Shown: positions 23,694-63,615 of the stretch, one piece after another | Layout: every line of letters starts with the position of its first letter | Numbering within the stretch: position 1 is the stretch's first letter | From: Nitrosomonas sp. | GTDB lineage: Bacteria > Pseudomonadota > Gammaproteobacteria > Burkholderiales > Nitrosomonadaceae | Direction of reading: 5' to 3' | Assembly: GCA_008015565.1 (NCBI GenBank) | Contig: SSFV01000009.1 | Location: forward strand, 2,916 to 66,915 | Length of the DNA stretch: 64,000 bases | Position numbers and translations under genes: made by a program | Notes under the pieces: generated by a model | Database searches by the model: none | What the model was told of the DNA's origin: nothing | The model's input: the letters and a program-made list of their open reading frames with translations, nothing else

Positions 23694-23738
23694 TTAATGG
23701 TTTCTATTAGTGAAAAACAATGGTTTCCCCAATGTACG
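23694..23738 (+). promoter_or_regulatory. Conserved 45-bp upstream element, copy 1
   Basis: TTAATGGTTTCTATTAGTGAAAAACAATGGTTTCCCCAATGTACG; 35/45 ungapped identity (hand count) to the reverse complement of 26476-26520; ends 60 bp before ATG 23798. Confidence 0.75.
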
Positions 23739-23797
23739 GATGATGTTGATCAAATTAAGATGGCACCATTCGATGAAATGTTTGGAGGATATTCATC

Positions 23798-24217
23798 ATG
23801 AGAACACTAAAATTATTAATTTCGCTGTTTGCGCTGACTATGTTGGTTGCTTGCGCTCAAATGAATTCATCGTTAGTTGCGCCAACCGGAATTGCTAATA
23901 ATGATCATAGAGCATTGATAAAGCATTATGAAGGCTTAGCTAGGGAAGCAAAAATTAAATTAGAGGAAAATAAAGCGATACTTGAAGCTTATGAAGCACG
24001 GCCATATTACTATGGCAGGCAAGGTTTGGATTTGCAATCGCACGCTTCAGCCAATATTCGTGAGCATACAAGAACTTTGAAACAAAGTCTTGAGTTTGCA
24101 AATCTACATCGAAGATTAGCTATGGAGCAACAAAAGAAATTAAATCAAACGGCTGATGCTAATGATCGTAATCTAACCGTCGAAAACTCGGAGTATTTTG
24201 ATAACAAAGGGCTTTAG
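23798..24217 (+). CDS. Uncharacterised helical lipoprotein (paralog 1 of a DH...YYYGRQG...SH...LH family)
   Basis: Lipobox LVAC; RBS GGAGG; clear paralogy to 26033-26419 and 26737-27117. Confidence 0.85.
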   Translation: MRTLKLLISLFALTMLVACAQMNSSLVAPTGIANNDHRALIKHYEGLAREAKIKLEENKAILEAYEARPYYYGRQGLDLQSHASANIREHTRTLKQSLEFANLHRRLAMEQQKKLNQTADANDRNLTVENSEYFDNKGL

Positions 24218-24236
24218 TGATAAGGCAGCAGGTACA

Positions 24237-24269
24237 CTGGCATTCACTGATTTTTTCAGTGAATGCCAG
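24237..24269. terminator. Bidirectional terminator between lipoprotein and porin B
   Basis: Perfect 14-bp stem CTGGCATTCACTGA-TTTTT-TCAGTGAATGCCAG between convergent genes. Confidence 0.7.
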
Positions 24270-24287
24270 ATGTATGTCAGTTTTTCA

Positions 24288-25637
24288 TTAAAAGGGCAAT
24301 ATAAAATCCAAGGAAAATAAAATTTGATCCTTATTGCCGGCGAATGGTCTATATGCAGCCGCTTGATAAGCATCTACTCTGTCATAACGTATATTGGGTC
24401 GAATGGTTAGTTTCTTGAGCGAGTCCCATTGGAGCTTTAAAGTTTTTGCCGCTTTCCAATTTAAACCAACAGTCGCTGCGTAATAATCTGCCGGAGTAAT
24501 CGTAACGCTACTAAGATTGCCTGCGTAACTGACCGGTACCCCGTTAACGACATTTGTGGCTGCTGCGATTCGGAATGGTGATGGATTGCGAAAGCCATCT
24601 CTATCTCGAAACCATTCTCCGCGCACACCTACTGATACATTTTGCGTAAGATCGTAATATAAATGTGTGACGAAGCCCATCCATTCGGCATCTTTGATAA
24701 CATTGGTGTATTTCAGATTATTCAATAAAACACCATCAGCAAAACCGTGTACATGGTGTAAAACTAACAGGGTTTTCGGATTAAATTTATGTTGAAACAC
24801 AATGTTATACATTGCCCATATCCCACTGTTCCGGGTTGAGATTTCCCCATAGGTGCCGGTAACGTTGAGCGAGGTTGCATGATTGTCGCTGGTCCAAGTG
24901 ATACCGCCAACACCGCCCCAATTACCTAGCTGCCTGTCCCATCCACCATCCCAGCCGCCGGTAGCGCTTCCTGTGACGGCACTCCCGGATACTGACCAGT
25001 TCTTGTTAATCACGTAATTTGCCTGTAAGCCGGTGTGCGTGAATGGCTCGCCTGCATTAAATGAATAAGCGCGTGTGTAGAAAAAGTTATCCGGTGCCGG
25101 AATTGTTTCAAAACCTGTGGGAGAATAAAAATGTCCGATTTTGATATTTAATCCGTTCTTTCCAACCGGAACGTGAGCTTCTAAGAAAGCTTGTGGTAAT
25201 GCAATGCCATAAGTGCGAGAGGATGAGCAGCATATATTAAGATCCCAATTGTTTCTATTCAGTACCTCGCCTGAATTTACATCAAAAGTTGGTACACCAA
25301 ACGCTTGTGTAAAAATGGCATCTGTTCCAAACAAAAAATCAAAACGTCCACCAAAATCCCATTTATTAGTTTCTGAAATAACCGGGCGTTGCAGGAATAA
25401 ATTAAGTTGATTTAACTGGAAACGATTGGCCTGATCGGCGAAAGCAACTGGTCCATTAAAGCCATTGGTTTGGCTCGGGTTAAAAGTTGCGCCACCGTGA
25501 ATCCAGCCACCGAATTCTAATCTGCTGTCTTTCGCAAAATTTTTTAGAGTATTAGCATGAAGTGTGCCGGAAGCTCCGGCAAAGAAAAGAAGTGAATAGA
25601 AAATTGTTCCAAATAACAGCCATTTCGAGGAATTCAT
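24288..25637 (-). CDS. Outer-membrane beta-barrel porin, BBP2/OmpL-like family (copy B)
   Basis: Long identical stretches with copy A (GGWIHGGATFNPSQT, GFRNPSPFRIAAAT, NKDQILFSLDFILPF); signal peptide ending TLHA. Confidence 0.8.
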   Translation of the reverse strand: MNSSKWLLFGTIFYSLLFFAGASGTLHANTLKNFAKDSRLEFGGWIHGGATFNPSQTNGFNGPVAFADQANRFQLNQLNLFLQRPVISETNKWDFGGRFDFLFGTDAIFTQAFGVPTFDVNSGEVLNRNNWDLNICCSSSRTYGIALPQAFLEAHVPVGKNGLNIKIGHFYSPTGFETIPAPDNFFYTRAYSFNAGEPFTHTGLQANYVINKNWSVSGSAVTGSATGGWDGGWDRQLGNWGGVGGITWTSDNHATSLNVTGTYGEISTRNSGIWAMYNIVFQHKFNPKTLLVLHHVHGFADGVLLNNLKYTNVIKDAEWMGFVTHLYYDLTQNVSVGVRGEWFRDRDGFRNPSPFRIAAATNVVNGVPVSYAGNLSSVTITPADYYAATVGLNWKAAKTLKLQWDSLKKLTIRPNIRYDRVDAYQAAAYRPFAGNKDQILFSLDFILPF

Positions 25638-25981
25638 TTATCAATGACAAGTAAAAAATGTGTTGAGTATTTATAAATCAAATGCCAATATAAACTGTCG
25701 CGTTATGTGTAAATCATAGTCTACCAAGTAATTGTGCGATGTCATCGCTTTAATTTTTGTTGCATTAAGACATTATCTTTTTTGTACAACTTGTTCATAT
25801 CCATTATTTTCTTTTTATTAGTTCGTACGGTACAACATCTTATTTGGTTTTGAAATGCATTTCATTTTAATGAATAGCAGAACAAATATCATTGTTCCAG
25901 CAGAAATGGAAAGAATGTAATGAGATAGGTGGTGAAATAATAGTAAATCGGAAATTATTTTCTACCTTCGGAAATAAAAAA

Positions 25982-26007
25982 ACAACCACAGGCAAGCCTG
26001 TGGTTGT
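25982..26007 (-). terminator. Rho-independent terminator of paralog 2
   Basis: ACAACCACAGG-CAAG-CCTGTGGTTGT 11-bp stem followed by a T tract on the - strand. Confidence 0.85.
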
Positions 26008-26032
26008 CCGCTTACTACCCTTAAGCGTTTTC

Positions 26033-26419
26033 TTATTGTACTGTCATAGAATTATCCGTAGTAAGTTTGGCTTTATTAATGACATCGCCATTTTGTTGTT
26101 CCATCGCAATGCGCTGATGTAAATTAGCGTTACTTAAACTTTCAGCCAGCAATTTTTCATATTCACGGATATTTGCAGTTGTGTGCGATTTAACATCTTG
26201 GCCCTGACGTCCATAGTAATAGCTATGGTTCTCATATTCTTCTAATACTGCTTTATTTTCTTGTAATTTGGATTTTGCTTCTTTGGCCAGAACTTCGTAG
26301 TGTTTTGCTAAAGCGGCATGATCGTTATCATCAATCCCGTCAACTTCTACTGCAAATGCTGAAGAAACAATTAGACTTAGTGCGAAAGCTAAAGCTACTA
26401 GAATTGCTGATTTTTTCAT
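26033..26419 (-). CDS. Uncharacterised periplasmic helical protein (paralog 2)
   Basis: Sec signal ending SAFA; NDHAALAKHYE...YYYGRQG...SHTTANIRE...LH. Confidence 0.88.
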   Translation of the reverse strand: MKKSAILVALAFALSLIVSSAFAVEVDGIDDNDHAALAKHYEVLAKEAKSKLQENKAVLEEYENHSYYYGRQGQDVKSHTTANIREYEKLLAESLSNANLHQRIAMEQQNGDVINKAKLTTDNSMTVQ

Positions 26420-26475
26420 GATTACTTTCTCCGGGTAATAAATTATGTTGACATATTAATTCGCTCAGCATCTTT

Positions 26476-26520
26476 AGTATATTGGGGAAACCCTGGTTTT
26501 CTTCTAAGGGAAACCATTAG
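26476..26520 (-). promoter_or_regulatory. Conserved 45-bp upstream element, copy 2
   Basis: + strand AGTATATTGGGGAAACCCTGGTTTTCTTCTAAGGGAAACCATTAG, 57 bp from ATG 26419; ends in TATACT on the coding strand. Confidence 0.8.
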
Positions 26521-26690
26521 ATGCTAAGTGCTTGGTTTAGATGCGTGAAAAAGATGTTTTCGAAGTTCGAGAATTTAATGATTGATGATAATTCTTGCTT
26601 TGCATTGAATGCAAAAATGGAGAGAAGCAGGCGTTTTAATTTGCTGGAAATAGCATAATCAGGGGTTTGATGTTAAGTCCAAATAAAAAA

Positions 26691-26716
26691 ACAACCACAG
26701 GCAATCCTGTGGTTGT
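26691..26716 (-). terminator. Rho-independent terminator of paralog 3
   Basis: ACAACCACAGG-CAAT-CCTGTGGTTGT plus T tract; same stem as at 25982. Confidence 0.85.
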
Positions 26717-26736
26717 TCGCATACTACCTTCAAGGG

Positions 26737-27117
26737 TTATCTTATTTCCGTGGAATCATCGAAATTTAACTTAGCTTTACTGATTACACTGTTGTTTTGT
26801 TGTTCCAATGCGATTCGATGATGCAAGTCAGCGTTGCTTAAGCTTTCAGCTAACTGTTTTTCGTATTCGCGAATATTTGCAGTTGTATGGGATTTAAGAT
26901 CCTGACCTTGGCGTCCATAATAGTAACTATGATTCTCATATTCTTCCAAAACTGCTTTATTTTCTTGTAACTTGACTTCCGCTTCTTTGGCAAGTAGCTC
27001 ATAGTATTTTGCTAAAGCGGCGTGATCGTTATCATCAATTCCATCCACTGCAAACGCTGAAGTTACTGTCAAGCTCAGTGCTAAGAAGAGAGCTACTAAT
27101 AGTGTTGGTGTTTTCAT
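26737..27117 (-). CDS. Uncharacterised periplasmic helical protein (paralog 3)
   Basis: Sec signal ending SAFA; mature part nearly identical to paralog 2. Confidence 0.88.
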   Translation of the reverse strand: MKTPTLLVALFLALSLTVTSAFAVDGIDDNDHAALAKYYELLAKEAEVKLQENKAVLEEYENHSYYYGRQGQDLKSHTTANIREYEKQLAESLSNADLHHRIALEQQNNSVISKAKLNFDDSTEIR

Positions 27118-27173
27118 GGCAATTTCCTCAAGTGATGAATGAATGGTGCCATAATAATTATGTCAACCTGCTA

Positions 27174-27218
27174 AGTATATTGGGGAAACCCTGGTTTTTT
27201 TATAAGGGAATCCATTAG
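27174..27218 (-). promoter_or_regulatory. Conserved 45-bp upstream element, copy 3
   Basis: + strand AGTATATTGGGGAAACCCTGGTTTTTTTATAAGGGAATCCATTAG; 42/45 identical to copy 2; also 57 bp from its ATG (27117). Confidence 0.8.
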
Positions 27219-62755: not shown

Positions 62756-63615
62756 TATTGGGCAGATTTGCTTGCAGCTGGAGCCAGCAATCGCTCGCCC
62801 GTACCCTTAGCAAAATGATAGTGTATTCCGGTATCGGCACGAAATAATACTATTTCATTATCATTTTGCATGATTTTTACATTGATTCCTTGTCCGTTTT
62901 GCAGACTGATTGTCAAATTATTGATCTCGGCAAAATCATCACTTAGCTCCTGTTCTTGTGCGATGGTCACTTCTCTCGCATTTGCTGTCCGCCAGAATTG
63001 AACCCAATGCTCCAATTCTGCATCTCGCAGATTTTCGCCATTCTGGATAATACCGTTCCAGCTTCCATTACTATGCGCTACGATCAGATGATTAAATTCG
63101 AACTTAACTGGAATTTCATTATCCGCCAGTAACTGTGTGCTGATCAGACTGCCGGCCTTTATTGGCAGAAAAAGCGCGTAATGTGGTGAAATTAAATAAA
63201 CATAATCCCTTGTCAGTACATATTGTTGATTGGTAATAGGCGCATACCCGCCAAAACCCAAATAGTCTTCATCAAAATATAAATGCAGATTGGGCCGGTC
63301 CAAACCAAACCGCGCAAGGTCTTGCAGCGGGAATCGGTGATTACTTTTAGCCGATAAAATTTTTAGAATCTCTTTAACTTTTTTTTCGTTAGCACGAGTA
63401 CGCACGGGACCGATTAGATGCCAATGATTGGCTTGCCGTTGCAATACAATCTCCCCCTGTTGCCTGACAATACGGATAGTCTGTATAGCTTCAATTGAAT
63501 TCGATGTAATGGGATATTCCTGAATATTGTCAGGTTGTGGCTTGAAATACAAAAACATTAGCAAGCCGGCTATCGTGACAAGCATAATGAGATTGAGACG
63601 GGCGTGATGTGTCAT
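62755..63615 (-). CDS. DUF4340-like exported protein
   Basis: N-terminal TM anchor, W.LIGPV..RAN, L.RFGLD.P; follows a GldG-like gene; stop overlaps the mutM start (TAATG). Confidence 0.65.

Follow-up and report, generated by a model that had tools for sequence, protein, structure and literature searches.

A conserved promoter element of Nitrosomonas and related ammonia oxidisers and its candidate NarL-type regulator

Introduction

At the nitrate-regulated promoters of E. coli, NarL and NarP sites are 7-2-7 inverted repeats of TACYYMT heptamers. In the fha-type promoters of BvgA and the uhpT promoter of UhpA, an upstream inverted repeat of high affinity works together with a weaker site that adjoins a poor -35 hexamer, so that occupancy spreads cooperatively towards RNA polymerase. 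A 45-bp element of related layout occurs three times in a 64,000-nucleotide stretch of Nitrosomonas sp. DNA (assembly GCA_008015565.1, contig SSFV01000009.1, positions 2,916 to 66,915; hereafter the window), each time upstream of a gene for a small exported protein. Here we computed the element, its conservation, the signatures of the associated -10 hexamer and transcription start, and its genomic linkage to a two-component system. Judged by sequence comparison, the element is the upstream half of a predicted promoter conserved across the family of these ammonia-oxidising betaproteobacteria. A NarL/LuxR-type response regulator probably activates this sigma70 promoter of about 75 bp through the 45-bp element.

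The design of the promoter is a familiar one for the NarL family, with a site sequence and spacing that differ from those of NarL. As in the NarL/NarP systems, there are two 7-bp inverted arms with putative lower-affinity sites towards the -35 position, and the candidate regulator has NarL as its closest solved relative and a HisKA_3 kinase as its partner. In contrast, the arms of the element read CTAATGG and CC(A/C)TTAG instead of TACYYMT and are separated by 3 bp rather than 2 bp. The sensor part of the kinase is unrelated to that of NarX and contains one to three tandem repeats without a Pfam match, and the targets are envelope proteins. The BvgA and UhpA promoters have the same regulator family and the same arrangement of a strong upstream site and a weak site near -35, known here from sequence, but the strong site of the element lies near -66 and not -88. 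The element also resembles the lux box, a class II activator site (bound by LuxR, centre at -42.5), in that its second site, near -43, lies beside or instead of a weak -35 hexamer and that a LuxR/GerE-type domain is involved. Unlike the lux box, the element has two sites, and its candidate regulator is phosphorylation-controlled and not an autoinducer receptor.

Results and Discussion

Occurrence and conservation of the 45-bp element

The three copies in the window (Table 1) align without gaps, show pairwise identities of 35/45, 34/45 and 42/45, and end 57 nt (copies 2 and 3) or 60 nt (copy 1) before the ATG. An earlier reading of the window, made from its letters (the sequence-only reading), had placed a 45-bp element upstream of all three small-protein genes, and its coordinates, identities and distances to the ATG agree with ours. 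The consensus given there matched the window with 0 mismatches at three places, which are exactly the three known copies, and had no match in 100 dinucleotide shuffles of the window. The 56 bp between element and ATG, described in the same reading as diverged, in fact contain another conserved block, TTGAnnnAnnTAAGATGGCAnC.

A sequence-only model of the element (R1) was scanned over 61 genomes of the genus and over other genera of the family. Matches were found in 40 of the 61 genomes, at 101 distinct sites and with up to 11 sites per genome, and the element is present in three of the four genera of the family, that is, in two beyond the source genus. In the 2.6-Mb draft genome from which the window is taken, a matrix built from relatives detected two weaker copies elsewhere, which brings the number of sites in this genome to five. 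The three sites in the window stand as the sequence-only reading described them, but the set of three was too small, with five sites here and up to 11 in relatives. Its suggestion that the element defines a multi-gene regulon is supported.

The information content per column, calculated from 71 unique sites, is 0-0.2 bit in the upstream flank and 1-2 bits within the element; it falls to about 0-0.3 bit at positions 46-62, and the block at positions 63-74 is conserved again. The flanks are therefore far less conserved than the element, contrary to what the sequence-only reading had named as a refuting outcome, which indicates that the element is under selection. In other genomes, the element precedes members of the small-protein family at the same distance as in the window. 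Its orientation is always promoter-like, 55-210 nt before the gene start, and a mobile repeat was rejected on these grounds. It is also extremely improbable that the element is a functionless remnant of a recent tandem duplication of gene cassettes. Copies 2 and 3 do belong to recent duplicates, whose proteins are 80% identical and whose terminators are nearly identical, but conservation begins sharply at position 1 and skips the spacer, and the element also precedes proteins with 30-40% identity, unrelated genes (porin, P-II-like) and genes of other genera.

Organisation of the operator

The anatomy of the element was derived from 101 unique sites. Positions 1-17 form a 7-3-7 palindrome, CTAATGG-(TTT or AAA)-CC(A/C)TTAG, whose centre lies near -66 from the predicted start (see below). 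Between five and seven of the seven arm positions are symmetric in 72 of the 101 sites, compared with a background mode of 1-2, and the arm pairs 2/16, 3/15, 4/14 and 7/11 are complementary in 87-95 sites. An inverted repeat of this symmetry would suit GerE-type domains that bind as a dimer. In 85 sites the centre reads TTT, and in eight it reads AAA, the flipped orientation; since the flipped centre is tolerated, a symmetric dimer site is favoured. A perfect palindrome, CTAAGGG-TTT-CCCTTAG, is found as a variant in another genus.

The palindrome is followed by an A-tract at positions 20-24 and by a second site at positions 24-40, a degenerate direct copy of the 23-bp unit AAnnGTTTCCCCAAT with its centre near -43. 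The second site repeats the left arm, the centre and CCC (AAnnGTTTCCC) 23 bp downstream, with a different right arm, and its own symmetry is merely 2-4 of 7. In one genome, the 23-bp unit of the element core (CAATnGTTTCCC...) occurs four times in tandem at locus L027, 1337-1430 (G011:C11, about 62790-62880), directly following one of two adjacent regulator genes.

Core promoter and predicted transcription start

Positions 40-45 of the element read TATACN, a weak hexamer that matches TTGACA at three to four of six bases in 84 of 99 sites. In 99 of the 101 sites, a TANNNT hexamer starts at position 63 or 64, separated from TATACN by 17-18 bp of variable sequence, and it occurs as TAAGAT, TAATAT, TAGTAT, TAGGAT, TATTAT or TACGAT. 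Its fifth base is A in 93 of these 99 sites, and a G follows directly after the hexamer (+6) in 70. At hexamer+11, a C is present in 80 of 99 sites and the next base (+12) is A or G in 74, forming a start signature of a pyrimidine/purine pair about 7 nt after the -10, near element position 75. Because TAnnAT follows at 17-18 bp in all but two of the 101 sites, TATACN is assigned to the -35 position. Thus, the predicted -10 hexamer is TAnnAT, with the consensus TA(A/G)(G/T)AT, at positions 63-68, and the predicted start is at about position 75. The positions given above for the centres of the palindrome (near -66) and of the second site (near -43) are counted from these predicted starts.

When the three window sites were scanned with a consensus, none showed a canonical sigma70 promoter, which fits dependence on an activator. 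In this respect, the sequence-only reading had correctly proposed an activator-type promoter without a good -35 hexamer. The same reading had taken TATACT as the -10 hexamer, with a start 6-7 nt after it and an operator, composed of the inverted repeat AAACC-N2-GGTTT and a further GGTTT half-site, that overlaps the core promoter. This arrangement is very unlikely, although the TATACT of copies 2 and 3 shares four of six bases with TATAAT and the region is crossed by one RNA contig (run X25, see below). The last base of the hexamer (position 45) varies freely, with A in 39, T in 34, G in 18 and C in 10 of the 101 sites, whereas almost no variation is expected in the final T of a sigma70 -10, and the TAnnAT hexamer 17-18 bp downstream is far better conserved. 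The start predicted here lies about 23 nt farther downstream, and the RNA contigs of 12 of 13 runs miss the earlier one. The inverted repeat itself is not conserved in relatives, in which positions 25-29 vary freely, and it was rejected both as an operator and as a hairpin for lack of conservation. On the opposite strand, a terminator scan marks AAACC-N2-GGTTT as resembling a terminator, but this holds for copies 2 and 3 only.

The spacer also contains a conserved TTGAYT block at positions 53-58 (23746-23751, 26468-26463 and 27166-27161), 4-5 bp before the -10 hexamer. A promoter with TTGACA at positions 53-58 and a -10 at positions 75-81 was considered and rejected, as A2 and T6 are present in just 14% of sites. 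A sigma54 promoter at TGGCAC was rejected too, since the -12 position has no GC and the GG is missing from copy 2. A leader peptide starting from a conserved ATGGCA was also discarded, with frames that stop after 3-13 codons or differ between relatives and an ATG that lies upstream of the predicted start. The upstream regions had no match to Rfam families (riboswitch, leader).

Transcripts of the three cassettes

The RNA data are assembled metatranscriptome contigs from 13 runs. In 12 of the 13 runs, the contigs over the three genes end 0-17 nt before the ATG, with 5' ends at 23789-23807 for gene 1, 26418-26436 for gene 2 and 27098-27128 for gene 3. These ends are 33-44 nt short of the start proposed in the sequence-only reading. 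Standard libraries usually lose some of the extreme 5' end. The RNA contigs disfavour that start and are compatible with a start near position 75, and they fix neither.

All three small genes are strongly represented in many wastewater and sludge metatranscriptomes with a word depth of 10-126. The BBP2 porin genes interleaved with them showed little or no RNA signal. The RNA contigs over gene 2 have their 3' ends at about 26000, and the 3' ends of the contigs coincide with two strong, nearly identical intrinsic terminators (Table 1). Every gene thus forms a cassette of its own, with promoter, gene and terminator. Gene 2's terminator is overlapped by a weak Rfam match to the proteobacterial small RNA psRNA14 (25942-26016, minus strand; 31 bits against a threshold of 60, E=0.02).

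Candidate two-component regulator

In agreement with the sequence-only reading, the window contains no regulator gene near the element. Open reading frames around elements were compared across genomes by clustering at 18 loci, 16 of them from genomes without the LysR ortholog that is discussed below. The recurrent non-target neighbours of the elements were solely one response regulator and one histidine kinase. The response regulator has REC and GerE (LuxR-type) domains and matches NarL among solved structures with an E value of 1e-27, and the paired kinase has HisKA_3 and HATPase domains. A same-strand element follows the end of the regulator gene at 12-209 bp in 16 loci from 15 genomes of the genus, and at 18-157 bp in seven genomes of two other genera. 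The order of kinase, regulator, element and small protein is retained in these two genera. In total, an element lies directly behind the regulator gene in at least 23 genomes of three genera. Among the 61 genomes, element and regulator are both present in 38, the element alone in two, the regulator alone in seven and neither in 14 (Fisher p=4.6e-7); this co-occurrence test ignores phylogeny, and the positional linkage in three genera is the stronger argument. The two genomes that have an element but lack the regulator are drafts with a completeness of 67% and 82%. The searchable literature gave no description of the element or of the two-component system.

In the present genome, the regulator and kinase genes lie on contig C3. 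An insertion sequence with disrupted transposase frames (C3:1-1600, locus L109) is located directly downstream of the regulator gene and occupies the place where relatives have the element and a target gene. The location of the pair on this contig, next to an insertion sequence, accounts for the absence of a nearby regulator in the sequence-only reading. The kinase encoded here (C3:2282-5170, locus L109) contains three tandem repeats of about 120 amino acids (LKEITCLYEIRR...GKVCG.LSVFYPED.PF...EEQRLIDAI) without a Pfam match; among its orthologs the number of repeats varies from one to three (693, 813 and 955-962 amino acids for one, two and three repeats, respectively).

In the mechanism that we propose, the NarL/LuxR-family regulator, phosphorylated by its HisKA_3 sensor kinase partner, would bind the palindrome as a dimer, and a second dimer would bind the weaker site beside the poor -35 hexamer. 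Occupancy of the second site would then recruit RNA polymerase, in the manner of other members of this regulator family. The promoter would drive monocistronic cassettes for exported helical-hairpin proteins in the window, and elsewhere the same promoter may drive genes for BBP2 porins, a P-II-like protein and a lipoprotein of about 50 amino acids. Binding by the regulator, activation of the promoter and the sensing of a signal by the kinase are the steps that we infer.

One alternative is a LysR-type regulator. Promoters of this type have a recognition site near -65, a role that the palindrome would play, and an activation site near -35 to -45, for which the second site near -43 would serve. 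A candidate gene (C76:67638-68366) lies beside a cluster of DUF488, element and P-II-like gene. The two site positions, about -66 and -43 from a predicted start, are classical for LysR-type promoters, as is the combination of a symmetric upstream site with a degenerate downstream site, and the gene is syntenic with the element-bearing P-II-like gene here and in the complete genomes G026 and G005. However, this regulator is an unlikely one. Its ortholog is missing from 11 element-bearing genomes, six of which are at least 99% complete, and its co-occurrence with the element in the same four classes (29/11/7/14, p=0.006) is weaker than that of the response regulator. The gene is not divergent from any element, and there is no LysR gene in the window. 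In addition, the symmetry of the element is T-N13-A (T2-A16) and A-N11-T (A3-T15), not the usual T-N11-A dyad.

Several observations weigh against control by the response regulator, or against the promoter structure predicted here. In seven genomes, among them two complete assemblies, the regulator is present but no element was detected, and in several genomes, including the present one, the regulator adjoins no element; for these two reasons, the assignment is provisional. The co-occurrence may simply reflect joint gain and loss of two-component system, element and small proteins. The palindrome (site 1) matches neither the heptamer nor the 2-bp spacing of NarL. The TTGAYT block of the spacer has no matching -10 hexamer downstream and is not accounted for. 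The RNA contigs end 10-21 nt short of the starts predicted here, and in run X25, an oligo-dT library, a contig (26041-26517) spans gene 2 and almost the whole element. This contig could be the product of an upstream start, antisense RNA or contaminating DNA. Given the contigs that fall short and the X25 contig, the start is not pinned down. Finally, no RNA contigs were found for the two genes behind the weaker sites of this genome (P-II-like gene: four runs).

Some of these points would also be expected if another, unlinked regulator were responsible. Such a regulator could be an activator; it could also be a repressor or an architectural protein at a promoter that needs no activation. The link to the two-component system would then reflect only the shared inheritance of one gene island. 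The genomes with a response regulator and no element, those in which the two are unlinked, the unexplained TTGAYT block and the strong expression of the genes in many wastewater metatranscriptomes all agree with this possibility. We nevertheless regard it as rather improbable: clustering of the neighbours gave no further recurrent regulator gene, the poor -35 hexamer argues for activation, and the order of kinase, regulator, element and target is kept across three genera.

Target genes and small exported proteins

The genes located behind elements encode small exported proteins or lipoproteins, BBP2 porins, a P-II-like protein and a lipoprotein of about 50 amino acids. In the window, two BBP2 porin genes are interleaved with the three small genes. 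The small-protein family was found in 27 of 37 sampled genomes of the genus, with up to 11 copies per genome, and its conserved residues are D33, H34, Y41, Y62, H65, Y68, G70, R71, S78, H79 and N83. Sequence searches of Pfam, NCBIfam and the PDB gave no match for the small protein. Its structural model is a two-helix hairpin (pLDDT, predicted local distance difference test, 78), for which the fold matches are generic (E>0.5). One source labels a homolog as a 'small metal-binding protein', and no similarity to a solved structure was detected.

The P-II-like gene (Pfam P-II, 4e-11) has an unusually long leader of about 165 nt and is found at C76:65300-66800 (L107), at L065 8714-9631 and in L075; it adjoins DUF488 and LysR genes in three genomes. 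The elements at L065 2117 and 4053 (plus strand) and at L075 3014 and 7883 (minus strand) precede an unannotated lipoprotein of about 50 amino acids (MFVKIFVIVSLIILGLIGCATNG...) after a leader of about 170 nt.

Table 1. Features of the element, its predicted promoters and associated genes. Locations are window positions, or contig:position elsewhere in the same genome.
Feature	Location	Strand	Remarks
Element copy 1	23694..23738	+	Palindrome 23694-23710, A-tract, second site 23717-23733, -35-position hexamer TGTACG 23733-23738; model R1 51 bits
Element copy 2	26476..26520	-	Palindrome 26520-26504, second site 26497-26481, TATACT 26481-26476; R1 57 bits
Element copy 3	27174..27218	-	Palindrome 27218-27202, second site 27195-27179, TATACT 27179-27174; R1 54.5 bits
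Predicted -10 of copy 1, TAAGAT	23756..23761	+	Predicted start A 23768, preceded by C
Predicted -10 of copy 2, TAATAT	26453..26458	-	Predicted start 26446
Predicted -10 of copy 3, TATTAT	27151..27156	-	Predicted start 27144
Small exported protein 1	23798..24217	+	139 amino acids, lipoprotein-type signal LVAC
Small exported protein 2	26033..26419	-	128 amino acids, predicted helical hairpin
Small exported protein 3	26737..27117	-	126 amino acids
Intrinsic terminator after gene 2	25980..26009	-	13-bp stem; terminator scan, RNA contig ends
Intrinsic terminator after gene 3	26689..26718	-	13-bp stem, nearly identical to that of gene 2; terminator scan
Weaker element copy	C76:66357	-	Precedes P-II-like gene
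Weaker element copy	C10:2811	+	Precedes BBP2 porin
Candidate regulator	C3:1626-2279		This genome, other contig than the window
Paired kinase	C3:2282-5170		This genome

Implications for nitrifier biology

Taken as a whole, the system could be a family-wide, previously undescribed two-component regulon, a proposal to which we give slightly less than an even chance. It would comprise a novel tandem-repeat sensor kinase, a NarL-type regulator and an operator with a 23-bp period, and would control a multi-copy set of exported helical-hairpin proteins together with BBP2 porins and a P-II-like protein. For the wider field, this would be another instance of a known regulatory design, with moderate interest in general; its real use would be for research on nitrifiers. 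Gene regulation in ammonia oxidisers is poorly mapped and genetic tools are scarce. The analysis supplies a sharply defined operator and promoter with about 100 natural variants, a short list of target genes and a specific candidate sensor-regulator pair. For the bacteria behind nitrification in soils and wastewater plants, these amount to a regulon that can be tested directly. In wastewater reactors, few genes of these organisms are transcribed more strongly than those of the small proteins. If the proposal is correct, the signal that the system reports may concern the envelope, a metal or a substrate and be central to the physiology of nitrifiers, and the inducing signal could reveal an environmental cue that these bacteria monitor and provide a native inducible promoter.

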